IMG/VR virus record: IMGVR_UViG_2534681993_000012
From: a virus
Lineage: Duplodnaviria; Heunggongvirae; Uroviricota; Caudoviricetes
Length of the DNA: 26,398 nt
Direction: 5' to 3' (one strand)
The translations under genes and the position numbers were made by a program. The first letter of the stretch is position 1; every line of letters begins with the position of its first letter. A model generated the notes under the pieces. That model was not told where the DNA came from. It was given only the letters and a program-made list of their open reading frames with translations, and did not search any database. Positions 531 to 26,398 of the stretch are shown one piece after another.

Positions 531-562
531 GGTACTATTACCACAACGGTAACTATTACCAC
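531..562 (+). promoter_or_regulatory. tandem direct repeats GGTA(A)CTATTACCAC x2 immediately upstream of terS; candidate late-promoter activator or packaging-recognition site
   Basis: 531-544 GGTACTATTACCAC and 548-562 GGTAACTATTACCAC. The second copy runs into the palindrome ACCACGGTGGT and the terS ribosome-binding site. Confidence 0.45.
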
Positions 563-3485: not shown

Positions 3486-3514
3486 ATTATACCTTTAAGG
3501 TAATTTGTGGTCAT
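3486..3514 (-). promoter_or_regulatory. sigma70-like promoter with embedded operator dyad for the membrane-protein gene
   Basis: Minus strand: -35 ATGACC (3514-3509), 17-bp spacer, -10 TATAAT (3491-3486). The dyad aTACCT-TTA-AGGTAA (3489-3503) lies in the spacer and overlaps the -10. Confidence 0.5.
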
Positions 3515-3706: not shown

Positions 3707-3783
3707 TGGCGTGGCATGCAGGATTCGAACCTGCGACCAACCGCTTAGAAGGCGGTTGCTCTGTCCAACTGAGCTAATGCCAC
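3707..3783 (-). tRNA. tRNA-Arg (anticodon UCU, decodes AGA); phage-borne
   Basis: Minus strand folds as a 77-nt cloverleaf: acceptor GTGGCAT/ATGCCAC, D-arm GCTC...GAGC, anticodon stem ACCGC/GCGGT with loop CTTCTAA (U33-UCU-A37), T-arm GCAGG-TTCGAAT-CCTGC, discriminator G and encoded CCA. Resembles but differs from host argU as I recall it. Confidence 0.85.
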
Positions 3784-4106: not shown

Positions 4107-4121
4107 TTACCTGAAAGGTAA
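4107..4121. promoter_or_regulatory. operator-like dyad TTACCT-GAA-AGGTAA (perfect arms)
   Basis: Perfect 6-3-6 inverted repeat. Lies about 320 bp 5' of the tRNA on the minus strand and about 90 bp upstream of the + strand 68-aa gene; the target promoter is ambiguous. Confidence 0.55.
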
Positions 4122-20221: not shown

Positions 20222-21127
20222 CTATATTTCCAGACACCTGTTATCACTTAACCCATTACTGGCTTGCTGCCGTAGATATTCCCGTGGCGAGCGATAACCC
20301 AGTGCACTATGCGGATGCCATTCGTTATAATGCTCGAACGCCTCTGCAAGGTTCTTTGCTGCCGTTAACCCGTCTGGTTTGGGCATGACACTGATGTAGT
20401 CACGCTTTATCGTTTTCACGAAGCTCTCTGCTATGCCGTTACTCTCCGGACTCCGCACCGCCGTGCTCTTCGGTTCAAGCCCCAACATCCGGGCAAACTG
20501 CCGTGTTTCATTAGCCCGGTAGCATGAACCATTATCCGTCAGCCACTCTACTGGAGACGCCGGAAGCTCGTTGCCGAAGCGGCGTTCCACCGCTCCCAGC
20601 ATGACGTCCTGTACTGTTTCACTGTTGAAGCCGCCCGTAGTGACCGCCCAGTGCAGTGCCTCACGGTCACAGCAGTCCAGCGCGAACGTGACTCGCAGTT
20701 TTTCTCCGTTATCACAGCGGAACTCGAACCCGTCAGAGCACCATCGCTGATTACTTTCTTTCACAGCCACTCTGCCTGTATGTGCCCGTTTCGATGGCGG
20801 TACAGCAGGTTTTCGCTCAAGCAACAGCGCATTCTGGCGCATGATCCGGTAAACACGTTTGGCATTGATCGCAGGCATACCATCAAGTTCTGCCTGTCTG
20901 CGAAGCAGCGCCCATACCCGACGATAACCATACGTGGGCAGCTCTCCGATAACATGGTGTATACGGAGAAGCACATCCGTATCATCAGTGTGACGACTGC
21001 GGCGGCCATCCATCCAGTCATCGGTTCGTCTGAGAATGACGTGCAACTGCGCACGCGACACCCGGAGACAACGGCTGACTAAGCTTACTCCCCATCCCCG
21101 GGCAATAAGGGCGCGTGCGCTATCCAC
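20222..21127 (-). CDS. insD: IS2 transposase OrfB (InsD)
   Basis: 301-aa translation [23 protein letters not shown]... recognised as IS2 InsD. Overlaps insC in the -1 frame with slippery CAAAAAAG at 21127-21134 (programmed frameshift typical of the IS3 family). Confidence 0.9.
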
Positions 21128-21450
21128 TTTTTTGCCCGTCCATATTCAACGGCTTCTTTGAGGAGTTCATTTTCCATCGTTTTCTTGCCGAGCAGGCGCT
21201 GGAGTTCTTTAATCTGCTTCATGGCGGCAGCAAGTTCAGAGGCAGGAACAACCTGTTCTCCGGCGGCGACAGCAGTAAGACTTCCTTCCTGGTATTGCTT
21301 ACGCCAGAGAAATAACTGGCTGGCTGCTACACCATGTTGCCGGGCAACGAGGGAGACCGTCATCCCTGGTTCAAAGCTCTGCTGAACAATTGCGATCTTT
21401 TCCTGTGTGGTACGCCGTCTGCGTTTCTCCGGTCCTAAGACATCAATCAT
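21085..21450 (-). CDS. insC: IS2 OrfA (InsC), HTH protein
   Basis: [25 protein letters not shown]...; ATG 21450 follows GGAGA. The ORF-track extension to 21495 lacks a ribosome-binding site. Confidence 0.85.
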
Positions 21451-21541
21451 CTGCTCTCCAATGACTAGTCTAAAAACTAGTATTAAGACTATCACTTAAA
21501 TAAGTGATACTGGTTGTCTGGAGATTCAGGGGGCCAGTCTA

Positions 21542-22082: not shown

Positions 22083-22595
22083 CTATGCAGGCTTTTTGGA
22101 TTTGTACGAATAATCCCACGGATAAACATTTCTACTAAGTGGGGCTGTATTCGTTCGTTCATGAAATAATTTTGTGAAATTCAATACGGAATCCATCCAA
22201 ACTTTTGCGTTAGCTTTGGTGTGTGCGGGCGGGTCCCAATAAGCTAGTAAGGCTGCATCTCTTATTTCATTGACTGCATATATGAGATATGCGTTACTGG
22301 TTGGTTTTGGCCTGTAATTTCCTTGTTCATCAATCAATCCATATGACCACTCATCCCAACACTGTTCAGTACATGAGTATGAATATGATGCATATTCACC
22401 AATATTGACATGAACCTTTCTGAGATGGAAGCCTAATACTTCGTCTGGTCTTTCAAAAAGAGTATCTTTTCCCAGATCAGGATGATGACCATGACGCCAG
22501 TGTTGTTTAAAAGCATCTTTTAGCGAAATCAGAAAGTCATCAGTTTTAAACTCACCAGTAGGTATAACCTTCCCGCTATACTCACTCAAAAACAT
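22083..22595 (-). CDS. uncharacterised protein (170 aa), distal gene of a two-gene operon; His/Cys-rich segments (HWRHGHHP, CTEQCWDEW)
   Basis: ATG 22595 follows GAGGAA; the start overlaps the last 14 nt of the upstream gene (translational coupling). No family recognised by eye. Confidence 0.6.
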   Translation of the reverse strand: MFLSEYSGKVIPTGEFKTDDFLISLKDAFKQHWRHGHHPDLGKDTLFERPDEVLGFHLRKVHVNIGEYASYSYSCTEQCWDEWSYGLIDEQGNYRPKPTSNAYLIYAVNEIRDAALLAYWDPPAHTKANAKVWMDSVLNFTKLFHERTNTAPLSRNVYPWDYSYKSKKPA

Positions 22596-22908
22596 CGAAT
22601 TCCTCTTCCTTCATATGCGTTTCTAATGAGTTAAGCTGGCGGAAAGATATCTCTTTTGATTCTGCAGATGAGAGCTTTTTTATCCGCTTTATATTCTTTG
22701 TGATAGGAATAGACATTGTATGCACATCAGCGGATGCTCTTGGCTTTGTGCTGATAAAAATATGGCGCAATGCCGCATTTTCACTATTGAACGAGCCAAT
22801 AGCTGATTTACGTGCTACAACCTTACCAGTAAAAATACGACTCTTGCTACGCTTTGCATGAGTTCCGCTTCTTACCGGACCTCTCATCACGAATCCAAGT
22901 TTTGTCAT
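22582..22908 (-). CDS. uncharacterised basic protein (108 aa), proximal gene of the two-gene operon
   Basis: ATG 22908 follows GGAGA (7-nt spacer); Lys/Arg-rich N-terminal half, acidic C-terminus; operator dyad 43-57 bp upstream. Confidence 0.6.
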   Translation of the reverse strand: MTKLGFVMRGPVRSGTHAKRSKSRIFTGKVVARKSAIGSFNSENAALRHIFISTKPRASADVHTMSIPITKNIKRIKKLSSAESKEISFRQLNSLETHMKEEEFDVFE

Positions 22909-22950: not shown

Positions 22951-22965
22951 TTACCTTTAAGGTAA
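22951..22965. promoter_or_regulatory. operator-like dyad TTACCT-TTA-AGGTAA (perfect arms) upstream of the 108/170 operon
   Basis: Perfect 6-3-6 inverted repeat in the 5' region of the minus-strand operon. Confidence 0.6.
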
Positions 22966-23031
22966 TATTACGCGAATCTACATCACATCGCCAATGATTA
23001 TTTTAAAGGCACATCCCTGTGCCGCCGCCCG

Positions 23032-23742
23032 TCAGAAGAACCCAGCCTTGTCGTTGATGTACTCCGCGTGGGTCTGGATATCACGCAGGCATTTGCTCAC
23101 ACCGACGATGTAGCAGAACATGGTGGTCAGCTCCGCCGCCGCGCCCGATACGTCGTGCCCGTCTTCCTGTAACTGGTTCAGCAGATTCATCAGCAGTGAG
23201 TGCTCCGTCAGGCCGAGAACACCAGACGGCGAATGAATCAGGCTACGGTAGCCGGGCTTCAGTGGGGCACTGTAGGTTTTGTTCTCTATCTTCATTGCCT
23301 GCATTACTGCTGACGCCGTGGCGTTGGCTACCTGGTCGGCAACCATCTTTATGCGTTCTTCCTGCGGTAGCGAGTTTTTAATGTAACTTCCGGTGCGGCG
23401 GATCTGAGGAAGAACCTCACCTGTAACCCATTTACGAAAGCGGTAGGGGATAGTGCCTGGTGTCACCGCATCGCGGCAGCGGAGGATCAGTGTGTAGAGG
23501 CCTGACTCGGAGATGATGTTGATCTCTTTTACTCGGCTGTCAAAAATTGCACGATGTTCATGCCCTATGTTGAACATAGACCTTTCATCATCATCCAGTT
23601 TTTCAAGTGCTTGGGTGACGTTTTGGATACGCAGCGCACTACAAACGTCTTGGGCTACAAACCATGGTTGGCCATCGATAATGATGGAACGGATAGGGTT
23701 AACAGATTCAAATTTGAAGATGGCAGTTTGAGCATTAGCCAT
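23032..23742 (-). CDS. phage antirepressor, BRO-N family (N-terminal Bro-N DNA-binding domain plus C-terminal Ant-like domain)
   Basis: ORF track 23032..23757 (GTG); ATG 23742 follows GGAG. N-terminus FKFESVNPIRSIIIDGQPWFVAQDVCSALRIQN is a typical Bro-N signature; the C-terminal 80 aa are homologous to the ORF at 24058-24315. Confidence 0.85.
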   Translation of the reverse strand: MANAQTAIFKFESVNPIRSIIIDGQPWFVAQDVCSALRIQNVTQALEKLDDDERSMFNIGHEHRAIFDSRVKEINIISESGLYTLILRCRDAVTPGTIPYRFRKWVTGEVLPQIRRTGSYIKNSLPQEERIKMVADQVANATASAVMQAMKIENKTYSAPLKPGYRSLIHSPSGVLGLTEHSLLMNLLNQLQEDGHDVSGAAAELTTMFCYIVGVSKCLRDIQTHAEYINDKAGFF

Positions 23743-23770
23743 GGTGGTTATCTCCACTTAGTGATTTTAA

Positions 23771-23801
23771 TCACCACCGCAACGCCAATTACTGGTGGTG
23801 A
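23771..23801 (-). promoter_or_regulatory. 5'-leader inverted repeat of the antirepressor gene (TCACCACC / GGTGGTGA, 15-nt loop) with a third ACCACC copy abutting the start codon
   Basis: Arms at 23771-23778 and 23794-23801; a GGTGGT copy at 23743-23748 lies directly beside the start codon. Alternative pairings could expose or occlude the ribosome-binding site. Confidence 0.35.
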
Positions 23802-23896
23802 ACTGGACAAGGTTGGCGTACCGGCCTAAGTGGTACCGGCGTCCTTTCGGACCCCTGCCCAGCCCACCATAATTCGGATATGGCTGTGCTTAACGC

Positions 23897-23921
23897 ATAA
23901 AAAAACCACGTCTGGCGTGGT
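23897..23921 (-). terminator. intrinsic terminator (minus strand) between the short paralogue and the antirepressor
   Basis: Minus strand reads ACCACG-CCAGA-CGTGGT then TTTTTTTA. Confidence 0.5.
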
Positions 23922-23954
23922 ATGCGCCACTTAGTAACTCGGGACGCCAATCCC

Positions 23955-23976
23955 GGCACTGGATTTTGCCAGTGCC
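23955..23976. other. stable GC-rich hairpin (8-bp stem GGCACTGG/CCAGTGCC, 6-nt loop), no U-tract
   Basis: Perfect inverted repeat within the structured intergenic region. Confidence 0.35.
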
Positions 23977-23990
23977 CGATTACTATGGCA

Positions 23991-24044
23991 CAAGAGGAGT
24001 GCGATGTAAATTTACCGCAAAGGTAAATATAAGCACTCCTCTTG
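23991..24044. promoter_or_regulatory. nested palindrome: 12-bp arms CAAGAGGAGTGC/GCACTCCTCTTG enclosing a 30-nt loop that carries the dyad TTACCg-CAA-AGGTAA (24012-24026)
   Basis: Perfect 12-bp inverted repeat, 14 nt downstream of the short paralogue's stop; the inner dyad matches the motif family with one arm mismatch. Confidence 0.5.
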
Positions 24045-24057
24045 GTAATTTCAAATC

Positions 24058-24315
24058 TTATCTGGTTTGTTTTCGTAATTGTTCGGCACAATAGTCGAGA
24101 TGTGTTTGCAGATCCCGCATAGACATCTGTGAGCTGGTGACGTAGTTAATCAGTGCAGTCAGTTCGGCAAGTGGGCCATCGACATTAAATCCATCCTTAT
24201 CGAGATCCCGGAGTAATTTCATCAAGTGCGATCCCTCCACCAGTGACCTGACGCCTCCCGGCGTGTGAATCCTTTCGGTAAATCCGTCTTCCAGTGGATA
24301 GTGATACTGCTGCAT
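24058..24315 (-). CDS. short antirepressor paralogue (85 aa) corresponding to the C-terminal domain of the adjacent BRO-N antirepressor; LexA-controlled
   Basis: ORF track 24058..24333 (TTG); ATG 24315 follows GGAGA (8-nt spacer). HTPGGVRSLVEGSHLMKLLRDLDKDGFNVDGPLAELTALINYVTSSQMSMRDLQTHLDY aligns with the antirepressor segment HSPSGVLGLTEHSLLMNLLNQLQEDGHDVSGAAAELTTMFCYIVGVSKCLRDIQTHAEY. Confidence 0.7.
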   Translation of the reverse strand: MQQYHYPLEDGFTERIHTPGGVRSLVEGSHLMKLLRDLDKDGFNVDGPLAELTALINYVTSSQMSMRDLQTHLDYCAEQLRKQTR

Positions 24316-24334
24316 CTTATCTTCTCCATGCAAT

Positions 24335-24354
24335 AACTGTATAAATATACAGTA
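24335..24354. promoter_or_regulatory. LexA (SOS) box
   Basis: AACTGTATAAATATACAGTA: CTGT-N8-ACAG with AT-rich spacer, about 18/20 to the consensus TACTGTATATATATACAGTA; sits 10 nt upstream of the ribosome-binding site of the short paralogue. Confidence 0.75.
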
Positions 24355-24391
24355 TCAAATAATTTGTTTGCTATCCAGCACGTTTTGCGAA

Positions 24392-24406
24392 TCACCTGAA
24401 AGGTAA
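24392..24406. promoter_or_regulatory. operator-like dyad TcACCT-GAA-AGGTAA upstream of the LexA-controlled promoter
   Basis: 6-3-6 inverted repeat, one arm mismatch; lies in the divergent intergenic region between the short paralogue and the tailspike. Confidence 0.55.
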
Positions 24407-24510
24407 TATCTGTTCGTATTTATGGGTTATATATCCATATGTGGTTTTTCAGGTAATAGAATAACCGGATATGCGGCGCAACGGGTGCTGCGACTATCTG
24501 GAGATTTAAC

Positions 24511-26398
24511 ATGACGGTCTCAACCGAAGTTGACCACAACGAATACACCGGTAACGGTGTTACAACGACATTCCCTTATACCTTCAGGATTTTTAAGAAG
24601 TCTGATCTGGTAGTCCAGGTTGTAGACCTGAACGATAACATCACTGTTCTGACGCTAGATACTGACTACACAGTAACCGGCGCAGGTGGGTATGTAGGTG
24701 GTAATGTAATACTGGCAACAGCTCTTGCTAATGGTTACCAGATTTCCATATCACGTGAATTGCCGGTTACGCAGGAAACGGATCTCCGTAACCAGGGTAA
24801 GTTCTTTGCTGAGGTGCATGAGGATGCGCTTGATAAGTTGACAATGTTGATTCAGCAGGTTCGTAGTTGGTTTAGCCTGGCGCTACGTAAGCCGTCATTT
24901 GCTGCTAACTATTACGACGCAATGGACAACTATATTCGTAATCTTCGTGCCCCATCCAGGCCGAAAGACGCAGCAACGAAAGATTATGTTGATATTCTTT
25001 CTGGTGCCAGCCTAAGCAGAAGCTTGAGAGTACCTGAATCGTTTATAAATGAGTTACCTGATGCGGATGGGAGAAAGAATAAAACACTGAGTTTTGATAA
25101 TTCTGGATCACCGCTTCTTCTTGATCCTGAAAGTAGTGGGTTATGGGGATATTCCCTTATTGATTCGTTTCAGGATGGTGCTTCAATAACAACTAGATTT
25201 CAGGCACTTCACTGGAAACGTCCTGATGGAAATGGCGAGTACTACCGTTGGGATGGATCTTTACCAAAAGATGTTCCTGAGAATTCAACCCCTGAATCAA
25301 CAGGTGGGGTTTCCCTTGGTGCCTGGGTATCTGTAGGGGATGCATCGTTGCGGAGCGACCTGATTAGTCAAGAGACAGATAAAGGCTCCTCAATAGTTAC
25401 ATATACCCCTAAATTTAATGATGCCGTCTCGATGTCGGTATATGAAAAACTTTCTGTAGATTTGGTGACACTTTCAGACTACGGATTTAAAGTTGGCAAC
25501 ACCGGTGCTCAGAACAAAGCGGCGTTTCAGAAGGCTATTGATGATGCTACGTTGCCAACTGAGATTGTTATACCAGAGGGGGTGTTCATTGTTGACCCTG
25601 GTATTACGATTAAGAATACTGTCACCATGATACGAGGTGCTGGCGCATATCAGTCCAGAATTTTCTCTACGGGTACAGCGGCACCGATAATCACGCAACA
25701 AGATGGAGTAATTACGTTCTGCGAGTTCAGGGACTTTGGTCTTGACGGAAATGGCTACGCAGCTAACGGCATCAGTCTTACTGAAGCCAACCACATTAAA
25801 ATAGAAAATATTGACGTGGTTAATACTAATAACAACGCAATATTAGTTAACGGTTACTCCATTGACATCATTGGGTGCCGATTGTTTCAAAACACCGGTA
25901 ACGGTATTAATGTTGGTGGCCACTGCAATAATATTAATATAATCAACAACCGTATCTATGGTAACGGAGCCGGTGGAGTTTTACTTACGCCAGCTTACGC
26001 TGAGGGCGGTATGAGCGTCAGAGTTAATGGCAACGATATAGAGCAAAATAAGTTCTACGGACTTTTGGCTTACGGGGTTAAAGGCCTTAACCTTGATGCT
26101 AACTATTGGGAACGCAACGGTGAGATTGGTTACCAGTATAGTGTACCTGAGTCTATTACAGTACGTGCGGATATCCACCTTATCGCGAACAATTTTACAT
26201 TAATTCCTGACCTTTCAAAAATTAATGATACCGTATCTATTCGCGGGAATCAGCAGACCGCGATTGGCTACGCCAGCGCGCTACCTAACCAAGACGGATT
26301 TATTTTCACGAACTATGCGAAAAACCTGACGATTGAAAATAATCAGTTATTAGACGCATCGAAAGTGAATAATTTATTAGCAATGTACCACAATAATA
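24511..26398 (+). CDS. tailspike protein (3'-truncated by window end): conserved N-terminal particle-binding domain plus right-handed beta-helix receptor-binding or depolymerase domain
   Basis: ATG 24511 follows GGAG; open to the window end (about 629 codons). N-terminus MTVSTEVDHNEYTGNGVTTTFPYTF...; C-terminal part has parallel beta-helix repeats (IIGCRLFQNTGNGINVGGHCNNINIINNRIYGNGAGGV). AT-richer than the virion operon. Confidence 0.85.
   Translation, partial: MTVSTEVDHNEYTGNGVTTTFPYTFRIFKKSDLVVQVVDLNDNITVLTLDTDYTVTGAGGYVGGNVILATALANGYQISISRELPVTQETDLRNQGKFFAEVHEDALDKLTMLIQQVRSWFSLALRKPSFAANYYDAMDNYIRNLRAPSRPKDAATKDYVDILSGASLSRSLRVPESFINELPDADGRKNKTLSFDNSGSPLLLDPESSGLWGYSLIDSFQDGASITTRFQALHWKRPDGNGEYYRWDGSLPKDVPENSTPESTGGVSLGAWVSVGDASLRSDLISQETDKGSSIVTYTPKFNDAVSMSVYEKLSVDLVTLSDYGFKVGNTGAQNKAAFQKAIDDATLPTEIVIPEGVFIVDPGITIKNTVTMIRGAGAYQSRIFSTGTAAPIITQQDGVITFCEFRDFGLDGNGYAANGISLTEANHIKIENIDVVNTNNNAILVNGYSIDIIGCRLFQNTGNGINVGGHCNNINIINNRIYGNGAGGVLLTPAYAEGGMSVRVNGNDIEQNKFYGLLAYGVKGLNLDANYWERNGEIGYQYSVPESITVRADIHLIANNFTLIPDLSKINDTVSIRGNQQTAIGYASALPNQDGFIFTNYAKNLTIENNQLLDASKVNNLLAMYHNN

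Follow-up and report, generated by a model that had tools for sequence, protein, structure and literature searches.

The structured region of about 300 bp that lies 5' of the antirepressor gene ant in this E. coli prophage is, judged by its sequence, an unexceptional example of an RNA switch already known from phages, the C4 system of P1 and P7. Within the window (the whole stretch of 26,398 nt that was analysed), Rfam reported two curated families on the minus strand of this region, isrK (E = 1.4e-12) and C4 antisense RNA (E = 5.6e-11), both above the gathering score and over their full models. We consider it very probable that this region serves as the regulatory leader for an antirepressor operon of the immI type, as in P1 and P7, and we are similarly confident in the prediction that C4, preceded by an IsrK-type small RNA, forms a switch that keeps ant untranslated. 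The leader resides here in an epsilon15/phiV10-like E. coli prophage, and is a known cassette, not a new one, that leaves the known mechanism unchanged. All of the structures described by a first-pass annotation of this DNA were located on the minus strand where it had placed them, and their fold z-scores relative to dinucleotide shuffles (-7.3 for the palindrome, -2.9 for the IsrK part, -5.0 for the C4 part and -5.0 for the whole 254-nt leader), together with the Rfam E-values, demonstrated that they exceed chance. That annotation had missed C4, the predicted main regulator, which is encoded on the ant strand in the interval from the terminator to ant.

The IsrK-type leader (23899-23975, minus strand) scored 67.2 bits against RF01394 (isrK Hfq-binding RNA; gathering score 50) over model positions 1-77 of 77, with a concordant MFE fold, and comprises hairpin 1, a hairpin with the a1 element in its loop, the b1 element and a terminator. 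The overlapping c4-a1b1 family RF03163 scored 44.3 bits, slightly below its gathering score of 46.7. An 8-bp hairpin was found on this strand between GGCACTGG (23976-23969) and CCAGTGCC (23962-23955). The a1 element (UUGGCGU, 23944-23950) occupies the loop of the hairpin CGGGA...UCCCG and is complementary to the a' element of C4, with a predicted duplex of -14.6 kcal/mol, and b1 (ACUAAGUGG, 23927-23935) has 8 nt complementary to the b' loop of C4 (-14.2 kcal/mol); these elements lie at -80 and -64 relative to C4, respectively, as they do in relatives. A terminator scan, independent of Rfam, identified an intrinsic terminator at 23899-23921 on the minus strand, which has a 6-bp stem (ACCACG, 23921-23916, and CGUGGU, 23910-23905), the loop CCAGA and a tract of seven U.

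A discrete small RNA extending from roughly 24050 to 23897 had been proposed previously. The terminated RNA itself was supported, with an end at about 23899 in both the RF01394 match and the terminator scan, but its start is most likely 23975, by homology, and not a position near 24050. The terminator hairpin alone amounted to only -7.1 kcal/mol, a weakness that fits partial read-through, as for the IsrK of Gifsy-1 (PMC4825925), and the earlier suggestion of read-through from a modest terminator into ant is predicted to be right in kind. In the MFE fold of the whole leader, a lower stem (23893-23927, minus strand) forms between GCGCAU (23927-23922) and AUGCGU (23898-23893); as this stem spans the terminator and the U-tract, only RNA that has read through could form it. 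Among 66 distinct relatives, the stem was predicted in 45, with compensatory sequence changes in many of its pairs, and it is also visible in P1.

C4 itself (23791-23874, minus strand) scored 66.0 bits against RF01695 (gathering score 45; model positions 1-87 of 87). Its MFE was -43.6 kcal/mol, and its MFE and centroid folds were identical to the model structure, in which a long closing stem encloses two hairpins, with b' in the second loop and a' single-stranded just after it. The closing stem of 17 bp is followed by ACCA and so resembles a tRNA acceptor end. Family membership and this anatomy were established directly. By analogy with P1, mature C4 would be 75 nt long (23868-23794; GGUGGG...UUCACC with an ACC tail), and the sequence is compatible with excision by RNase P at the GG(U/A) end, with cleavage predicted between U and GGUGGG at the 5' end and with ACCA after the closing stem. 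ARAGORN reported only a phage tRNA-Arg (3707-3783) in the window as a tRNA or tmRNA, and C4 is tRNA-like only at its acceptor-type end.

Rfam and complementarity together placed b' (CCACUUAG, 23826-23833, minus strand) in the loop of C4 hairpin 2, and a' (ACGCCAA, 23813-23819, minus strand) in the single-stranded stretch that joins hairpin 2 to the closing stem's 3' strand. Each is perfectly complementary to two identical copies elsewhere in the leader: a' to a1 and a2 (both UUGGCGU, 7 nt), and b' to b1 and b2 (both (A)CUAAGUGG, 8 nt). This triple complementarity was observed directly, and the b 8-mer was present four times in the window, compared with 0.55 expected occurrences. RNAcofold of the C4-target complex gave no intermolecular pairs and no net gain, as expected for loop-loop kissing, although the energetics of the complex thereby remain a prediction; duplexfold of the same partners gave an unrealistic full unfolding, and only the local a and b duplex energies were informative.

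The predicted target gene is ant (23032-23742, minus strand), which encodes a 236-aa antirepressor with a BRO-N and a C-terminal domain (Pfam Bro-N, 9.6e-20; PHROG 130 'anti-repressor Ant', 8e-57). Upstream of its start codon, a2 (23782-23788, minus strand) is located at +6 after C4 in the loop of a small hairpin, GUAA/UUGC, and b2 (ACUAAGUGG, 23762-23754) is located at +33, the same position as in relatives. The b2 element overlaps the ant Shine-Dalgarno sequence GGAG (23755-23752; both elements together 23752-23762, minus strand), which lies 9 nt before the AUG, and the b2:b' duplex was predicted at -12.6 kcal/mol. The earlier proposal of RNA-level control at the ant ribosome binding site is right in kind as a prediction. 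The ACCACC that abuts the AUG (23743-23748, minus strand) is the 3' strand of a hairpin (-13.9 kcal/mol) that displays b2 and the Shine-Dalgarno sequence, and in 42 of 79 MFE folds the conserved element GGUGGUGA (23771-23778, minus strand) was paired to the nucleotides just 5' of the start codon, with compensatory variants.

Relatives provided a further observation. In 47 relatives with differing a/b sequences, the elements occupy the same positions as in the window, and all three copies of each element change together. Since the b loops vary in length and sequence, which would make a MAFFT alignment there unreliable, we tested co-variation as cognate versus non-cognate flanks; over the 47 specificity types, complementarity of cognate flanks averaged 7-8 nt, versus 4.6-4.9 nt for non-cognate ones. 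A match of at least 7 nt to a' was found for a2 in 100% of these types, and b2 and b1 matched in 85% and 72% of them, respectively. Both elements, a and b, assort as modules of specificity that can be exchanged. In the seven other phages tested, which carry the isrK and C4 pair before Ant/Rha genes, IsrK precedes C4 in six, the exception being Aaphi23, where a different small-RNA family occupies the IsrK position before C4. On the evidence of sequence, this comparison shows that C4 cassettes in general have IsrK as their a1/b1 leader.

A promoter scan predicted two sites upstream of the IsrK leader on the minus strand. The distal site (10/12 matches, a prediction only) has the -35 hexamer TTGAAA (24049-24054) and the -10 hexamer TATATT (24031-24026), in a position analogous to P2c4/P51a of P1. 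The proximal site (23982-24010) has TTTACA, a 17-nt spacer and a TG-extended CATAGT, and is predicted to initiate transcription at about 23975; its -10 hexamer aligns with that of P1c4/P51b in P1 (TATAGT) and with the -10-like hexamers present 6-8 nt upstream of the IsrK 5' end in all relatives inspected. The outer palindrome has 12-bp arms, CAAGAGGAGTGC on the left (24033-24044, minus strand) and GCACTCCTCTTG on the right (23991-24002, minus strand, within the spacer of the proximal site), and its 30-nt loop contains the dyad ATTTACC-N5-GGTAAAT (24010-24028; half-sites 24028-24022 and 24016-24010; core TTACC-N5-GGTAA, 24012-24026). The description of this dyad as an operator fits its recurrence: the core was found seven times in the window, compared with 0.40 expected, and 14 times in the phiV10 genome, including the divergent intergenic region of repressor and p41. 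Of 116 distinct upstream contexts, 32 have the dyad at a constant spacing from C4 (-150 to -156), and it is probably the operator of the prophage repressor. The outer arms, which are present in only some relatives and in several differing sequences, behaved otherwise; in about half of the close relatives the right arm is retained with no complementary left arm, and other relatives have outer arms of 6-7 bp and differing sequence. A conserved RNA hairpin is only partly supported by this pattern, which a symmetric extension of the operator explains equally well. The palindrome was ruled out as an intrinsic terminator of the upstream gene, as no U-tract follows it.

In the mechanism that we propose, transcription would start at one or both of the promoter-like sites flanking the putative repressor operator dyad, and the first product would be the IsrK-type leader with a1 and b1. 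Most transcripts would end at the weak intrinsic terminator, giving a small RNA of about 77 nt, and read-through transcripts would extend into the tRNA-like C4, which RNase P would excise, by analogy with P1. The single-stranded a' and the looped b' of C4 would then pair with a2 and b2 before ant. Because b2 overlaps the Shine-Dalgarno sequence, ribosomes would be excluded and Ant would not be made, and the prophage repressor would consequently stay active; incoming phages of the same a/b type would likewise be silenced. As exact copies of a2 and b2, a1 and b1 may compete for C4, in the way that short IsrK activates anrP translation in Gifsy-1. The C4 mechanism has been experimentally established for P1/P7 (Citron & Schuster 1990, Hartmann et al. 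1995; summarised in PMC5320573 and PMC8198154), and the IsrK mechanism in Gifsy-1 (PMC4825925). The annotation of P1 labels a1/b1 'putative'.

The C4-like segment could instead belong to a translationally inactive read-through mRNA of the Gifsy-1 type, in which a1/b1 are paired in cis with a'/b' and there is no free trans-acting repressor. Such a fold was shown experimentally at the homologous Gifsy-1 locus, where the compensatory mutations G28A/C162U and G31A/C159U fall in the equivalents of a1 and a' (PMC4825925); the window has an RNA of the same IsrK family, and the predicted a1:a' and b1:b' duplexes have a slight advantage in strength over those of a2:a' and b2:b'. However, the frame equivalent to orf45 (AUG at 23871) has only 14 codons and no Shine-Dalgarno sequence, stops inside b', some 80 nt short of the ant AUG, which makes translational coupling impossible, and we rejected it as an upstream ORF of the orf45 or icd type. 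A cis fold also accounts neither for the presence, on the ant Shine-Dalgarno sequence, of an exact a2/b2 copy that co-varies nor for the tRNA-like GG...ACCA ends of C4, and IsrK and C4 remained separate domains in the whole-leader MFE fold. As a replacement for the C4 model it therefore seems unlikely to us, and the two models are not exclusive, since IsrK acting as an anti-C4 decoy would reconcile them.

We give still less credence to the model of the first-pass annotation, in which the GGTGGT/ACCACC elements, by pairing in alternative ways, themselves form the switch (an attenuator or riboregulator) for read-through or for ant translation, in the manner of P22 sar. The middle element, GGUGGUGA, is conserved in 78 of 80 distinct leaders and can indeed pair in two ways, either with the ACCACC at the AUG (6 bp) or with the upstream UCACCACC (23801-23794, at the C4 3' end; a perfect 8 bp, -16.0 kcal/mol), and compensatory changes preserve the upstream pairing in Aaphi23 (UUCAUCAC/GUGAUGAA) and, for the most part, in P1. 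But of the GGTGG/CCACC copies (CCACC, 23798-23794; GGTGG, 23778-23774; CCACC, 23747-23743, abutting the ATG at 23742), the upstream one (within CACCACC) forms the 3' side of the C4 closing stem of 17 bp, and its real partner is a fourth copy, GGTGG at 23868-23864. As the C4 fold is worth -43 kcal/mol and is the first to form during transcription, the alternative helix would be strongly disfavoured. The elements lie 3' of the terminator and so cannot control it, no plus-strand promoter-like site for a sar-like antisense RNA was predicted in 23000-24800, and the sequences that vary between phages while tracking each other are a and b, which makes these, and not GGTGGT/ACCACC, the specificity elements. 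That the cassette is a decayed relic of a defective prophage is the least credible reading, and a very improbable one. The window does contain an IS2-like insertion (ORFs 20222-21495), whose transposase has no annotated counterpart in the DEC9B prophage, which otherwise matches, but a and b are each undamaged in all three copies, with their complementarity preserved, the 236-aa ORF of ant is complete, and a 1.5-kb segment containing the cassette is 100% identical in three genomes, has matches covering at least 80% of it in 226 genomes (mostly at 90-99% identity) and is 98.5% identical to the genome record of phage HEMP4.

The region was previously said to separate two antirepressor genes. The upstream gene (24058-24354 with its LexA box, minus strand) encodes only an 85-aa product (ORF 24315-24058; PHROG 450) that is 43% identical to Ant residues 155-228, a copy of the C-terminal domain of Ant as a protein in its own right. 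A LexA box (TACTGTATATTTATACAGTT, 24354-24335) precedes the gene and is kept at about -480 in 12 relatives. We found no terminator between this ORF and the IsrK leader. If the LexA-box promoter drives the 85-aa gene, its mRNA after DNA damage would carry a1/b1 at the 3' end, because no terminator precedes that of IsrK, and might act as an SOS-inducible sponge for C4, a suggestion that we make only tentatively and think doubtful. Were it true, DNA damage would free the large antirepressor from repression through removal of the antisense RNA, in parallel with the effect, whatever that is, of the small Ant-C-domain protein on a non-cleavable (HTH-only) prophage repressor; it would also provide a function for the long-unexplained a1/b1 of P1-type systems and tie IsrK-type activation to SOS.

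These results matter mainly for annotation. Public records (PGAP and the phiV10 record) list a 'hypothetical protein' on the opposite strand, which is spurious, together with an ant whose start is truncated and a single 'terminator', and leave C4 unannotated. The PGAP protein and two ORFs of 100 aa and 34 aa overlap both RNA genes, and we rejected a coding explanation and treated them as spurious. The two curated RNA genes in this segment probably determine the immunity specificity of the prophage, which hundreds of E. coli genomes carry, and how it behaves on induction.

The region had been compared to the control of ant in phage P22, where sar is a cis-antisense RNA, transcribed on the opposite strand over the ribosome binding site of ant. 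Both systems have an RNA that blocks initiation of antirepressor translation; however, the regulator here lies upstream on the same strand, is predicted to be excised from the same transcript and pairs via two short, separated elements. The promoter scan found no plus-strand promoter-like site in 23000-24800, and the comparison with P22 proved to be the wrong one; the right ones are c4 of P1/P7 immI and IsrK of Gifsy-1 (PMC4825925).

The order of elements is the same as in immI of P1/P7: operator and two tandem promoters (both predictions here), a1 (7 nt), b1 (8 nt), terminator-like hairpin, C4, a2, b2 and start codon. In both, C4 is about 75-77 nt long with a 5' end of GGU and a closing stem ending in ACC, b' is in the loop of hairpin 2 with a' just after it, a2 follows a few nt past C4, b2 lies on a ribosome binding site some 10 nt 5' of the start codon, and the target operon is that of an antirepressor. 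In contrast, the a/b sequences here are distinct and would give a different immunity specificity, and b2 masks ant itself, whereas in P1 it masks the small upstream gene icd. P1 differs further in having an Ant1/Ant2 pair instead of a BRO-N protein, a C1 site instead of the TTACC-N5-GGTAA dyad, and a plasmid prophage instead of an integrated epsilon15-like podovirus as host.

With the isrK-orf45-anrP locus of Gifsy-1 in Salmonella (Hershko-Shalev et al. 2016, PMC4825925), the region shares the Rfam family of the leader over the full-length model, a terminator with read-through (predicted here), the position of C4, at which Gifsy-1 has the stable processed RNA STnc1160, and an antirepressor-like gene downstream, and the base pairs proven there by mutation correspond to a1:a' (PMC4825925). 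It differs in that ant has its own Shine-Dalgarno sequence carrying b2 with no coupled ORF of the orf45 type, and in that antQ is absent upstream, where the LexA-box gene for the Ant C-terminal domain copy is found instead. Without a coupled upstream ORF, downstream effects such as Rho-dependent polarity may differ from those in P1 (icd) and Gifsy-1 (orf45). The c4 antisense RNA and c4-a1b1 motifs (Weinberg et al. 2010; RF01695, RF03163) are reported to be widespread in Proteobacteria and their phages; the window matches the C4 model and nearly reaches the a1b1 model (44.3 versus 46.7 bits), with no structural difference. The literature and the Rfam clans still treat IsrK and C4 separately, and P1 shares the a1/b1 leader layout found here.

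Scanning the whole window against Rfam placed two full-model matches above their curated thresholds within the structured region upstream of the antirepressor gene ant, both on the minus strand: isrK (RF01394) at 23975-23899 (67.2 bits, gathering score 50) and the C4 antisense RNA (RF01695) at 23874-23791 (66.0 bits, gathering score 45). The c4-a1b1 family (RF03163) also matches here, overlapping isrK, but its 44.3 bits are slightly below the threshold of 46.7. All sequence-level defining features of the C4 family were looked for and all were found. The region is a previously unannotated member of this family and also belongs to the isrK RNA family; the kind itself is already known, as c4 and c4-a1b1 were described as occurring widely among Proteobacteria and their phages (Weinberg et al. 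2010). The downstream gene (23742-23032, minus strand) encodes the 236-aa antirepressor Ant (Pfam Bro-N, 9.6e-20; PHROG 130 'anti-repressor Ant', 8e-57). The window as such is an epsilon15/phiV10-type prophage of E. coli. Three complete E. coli genomes carry the segment at 100% identity, 226 genomes match it over 80% or more of its length, and its identity is 98.5% to phage HEMP4 and 82% to phiV10.

The C4 RNA starts with GGUGGG, preceded by U, and has a 17-bp closing stem followed by ACCA; the segment 3' of the terminator, which holds it, folds with z = -5.0 relative to dinucleotide shuffles. This end has the appearance of a tRNA acceptor, the kind that RNase P processes in P1 and P7 according to the summary of Hartmann et al. 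(1995) in PMC5320573, and by analogy we infer RNase P processing of C4 here. The C4 element b' (CCACUUAG, 23833-23826) lies in the loop of the second C4 hairpin, and a' (ACGCCAA, 23819-23813) directly follows that hairpin. Upstream are the putative decoy copies a1 (UUGGCGU, 23950-23944), in a hairpin loop, and b1 (ACUAAGUGG, 23935-23927). The targets before ant are a2 (UUGGCGU, 23788-23782), 6 nt past C4, and b2 (ACUAAGUGG, 23762-23754), which overlaps the Shine-Dalgarno sequence GGAG (23755-23752; AUG at 23742). All of these are on the minus strand.

The IsrK and C4 pair precedes Ant/Rha-type genes in phiV10, Tyrion, yong2, VT2-Sakai, PhiR26_1 and 2H10, and in Aaphi23 a different small-RNA family stands before the C4 match. 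The b sequence differs phage by phage, with b1, b' and b2 varying in concert, and in Tyrion a is altered too, at all three places. Using a pattern anchored solely on the C4 closing stem, we collected 120 further loci from IMG/VR (L011-L130), which held 47 distinct a'/b' combinations, and matched each C4 against its own flanks as well as those of other types. Cognate matches had mean runs of 6.9 nt for a1 (at least 7 nt in 89%), 7.1 nt for a2 (100%), 7.2 nt for b1 (72%) and 8.1 nt for b2 (85%), compared with means of 4.6-4.9 nt across the four elements in non-cognate flanks, where 7 nt was reached in 4-19%. The match positions were fixed at about -80 (a1), about -64 (b1), +6 to +8 (a2) and +32 to +39 (b2), the corresponding positions in the window being -80, -64, +6 and +33. 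Assortment of a and b was independent in these loci (12 or more a' types, over 25 b' types); L031, for example, has the same b' as the window and a different a'. Such independent assortment of co-varying elements is the signature of functional, specificity-determining base pairing, which underlies the heteroimmunity of P1 and P7 as the work of Citron and Schuster (1990) has been summarised. Two cassettes that differ in specificity lie on a single contig, L025.

Upstream of IsrK, the palindrome described in the first-pass annotation (12-bp arms at 24044-24033 and 24002-23991, 30-nt loop) was present, as was the dyad ATTTACC-N5-GGTAAAT (24028-24010) inside its loop. The structures of the region are not due to chance, with z-scores against dinucleotide shuffles of -7.3 for the palindrome, -2.9 for the small-RNA part and -5.0 for the whole 254-nt leader. 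Two predicted promoter-like sites on the minus strand flank the dyad, one distal (TTGAAA-17-TATATT, 24054-24026) and one proximal (TTTACA-17-CATAGT with TG upstream, 24010-23982). Because the proximal -10 aligns with the P1c4 -10 of P1 (TATAGT), and also with a -10-like hexamer that all inspected relatives have 6-8 nt upstream of the IsrK 5' end, the small RNA that the first-pass annotation had started near 24050 most likely has its 5' end at 23975. The dyad core TTACC-N5-GGTAA occurs seven times in the window (538-552, 556-570, 3489-3503, 4107-4121, 22951-22965, 24012-24026 and 24392-24406) against 0.40 expected, and 14 times in the phiV10 genome, where two cores lie in the divergent repressor gene/p41 intergenic region and several in the early region. 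Its distance to C4 is fixed in all of the upstream contexts that carry it (32 of 116 distinct ones). Given this over-representation, the location at the phiV10 repressor and the fixed spacing, the dyad is most likely the operator of the prophage main repressor, dispersed like the C1 operators of P1 and taking the role of Oc4/Op51. The outer arms are less general than the inner dyad. In about half of the close relatives the right arm, located in the spacer of the proximal promoter-like site, is retained but a complementary left arm is lacking; in others the arms differ in sequence and measure 6-7 bp, and in phiV10 there is a perfect palindrome of 18 bp.

The 8-bp hairpin (23976-23955, minus strand) and the intrinsic terminator (stem 23921-23905 and seven U) were likewise found as first described, the latter being called independently by a terminator scan; its hairpin is weak (-7.1 kcal/mol). 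A lower stem (GCGCAU 23927-23922 with AUGCGU 23898-23893, minus strand) encloses the terminator hairpin and U-tract and is possible only in read-through RNA. It was a predicted feature of 45 of the 66 distinct relatives, where many pairs are compensatory, and it can also be seen in P1. The Rfam isrK model is drawn without this stem.

Three GGTGG/CCACC elements are present at 23798-23794, 23778-23774 and 23747-23743, the third directly adjoining the ATG at 23742; as they are located 3' of the terminator, control of termination through them is excluded. The upstream copy (UCACCACC, 23801-23794, minus strand) forms the 3' strand and the tail of C4, and its true partner is GGUGG at 23868-23864, which had not been listed before. 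The middle element (GGUGGUGA, 23778-23771, minus strand) is kept in 78 of 80 distinct leaders and pairs with the nucleotides directly before the start codon in 42 of 79 MFE folds, with many compensatory variants (e.g. GUGGUGAUUA/UGAUCACUAU and GGUGGUGUUUAACC/GGUAAACAUCAU). In the resulting hairpin, b2 and the Shine-Dalgarno sequence are exposed close to the apex; in the window it is formed by GGUGGU/ACCACC (-13.9 kcal/mol). The alternative 8-bp helix (23771-23801, UCACCACC with GGUGGUGA, -16.0 kcal/mol) holds a2 in its loop; compensatory changes preserve it in Aaphi23 (UUCAUCAC/GUGAUGAA) and, for the most part, in P1. Both proposed pairings of the middle element can form, but this helix is unlikely to act as a switch, because the C4 fold (-43 kcal/mol) forms first and its closing stem outcompetes it thermodynamically.

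We regard it as highly probable that the region is a C4 system in both family and general mechanism. Operator-flanked promoters would make an IsrK-type leader, the majority of transcripts would stop at the weak terminator, and read-through RNA would yield C4, which would be excised. C4 would then base-pair with a2/b2 and shut ribosomes out of ant, and a1/b1, on the leader or the small RNA, could compete for C4. At the Salmonella Gifsy-1 locus, IsrK activates anrP translation in trans, and the substitutions that proved base pairing (G28A/C162U and G31A/C159U) fall in the equivalents of a1 and a'. The downstream segment was read there as orf45, with a stable processed RNA (STnc1160) noted in it (PMC4825925). 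The P1-type reading fits the window better than the orf45 reading, since the orf45-equivalent frame has 14 codons without a Shine-Dalgarno sequence and ant has its own, covered by b2; both readings can be reconciled if IsrK serves as a decoy for C4.

An 85-aa ORF (24315-24058, minus strand) directly upstream of the IsrK region is preceded by a LexA box close to consensus (TACTGTATATTTATACAGTT, 24354-24335, minus strand), which is conserved, with its distance unchanged, in 12 epsilon15-like relatives. The dyad site at 24392 is upstream of this box. The 85-aa protein corresponds to the C-terminal domain of Ant, encoded as a gene of its own (PHROG 450, 43% identity over 74 aa, E = 6e-20). The only domains of the phiV10 repressor are helix-turn-helix ones, with no S24 peptidase domain, which fits a phage induced through antirepressors, and for this reason the 85-aa ORF may be an SOS-inducible antirepressor or a modulator of Ant. 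No terminator was found between this gene and the IsrK terminator, so that its SOS-induced transcripts would end with a1/b1. That they titrate C4 seems to us rather unlikely; if they did, DNA damage would be coupled to release of the large antirepressor.

On the identical segment of the DEC9B prophage, RefSeq/PGAP places a 'hypothetical protein' opposite C4 and the ant 5' end (window 23560-23829, plus strand; 20672-20941 in DEC9B coordinates) and starts the BRO-N gene at an ATC (window 23679, minus strand; 20822 in DEC9B), and not at the ATG at 23742, which has a Shine-Dalgarno sequence before it. The two calls look to be artefacts caused by the unannotated RNA genes. Directly downstream of ant, a 108-aa ORF overlaps a 170-aa ORF (22083-22908, minus strand), and the dyad site at 22951 lies directly upstream of the pair. 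The 170-aa ORF matches the YafO toxin weakly in Pfam (E = 9.5e-4, short of the cut-off) and is called a YafO family toxin by PGAP, and the two ORFs may be a toxin-antitoxin cargo. An IS2-like insertion sequence (20222-21495, minus strand; ORFs of 136 and 301 aa) is located some 0.6 kb past the YafO-like gene; the DEC9B prophage, which matches otherwise, has no transposase annotation at the equivalent place. The prophage also encodes a tRNA-Arg(TCT) (3707-3783, minus strand), located between its terminase and portal genes and flanked by the dyads at 3489 and 4107.

The loose comparison with antisense control of ant in P22, made in the first-pass annotation, does not hold: the promoter scan found no opposite-strand promoter for a sar-like RNA in 23000-24800, and the regulator, unlike sar, is on the same strand as its target. 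Gifsy-1 shares the isrK family with the window, but its orf45 coupling and antQ context are absent here. The region corresponds closely to the immI region of P1, whose GenBank record gives the order Oc4 (a C1 operator), P2c4, P1c4, a1, b1, c4 (77 nt), a2, b2, icd and ant; in the window the order is identical and the spacing nearly so.
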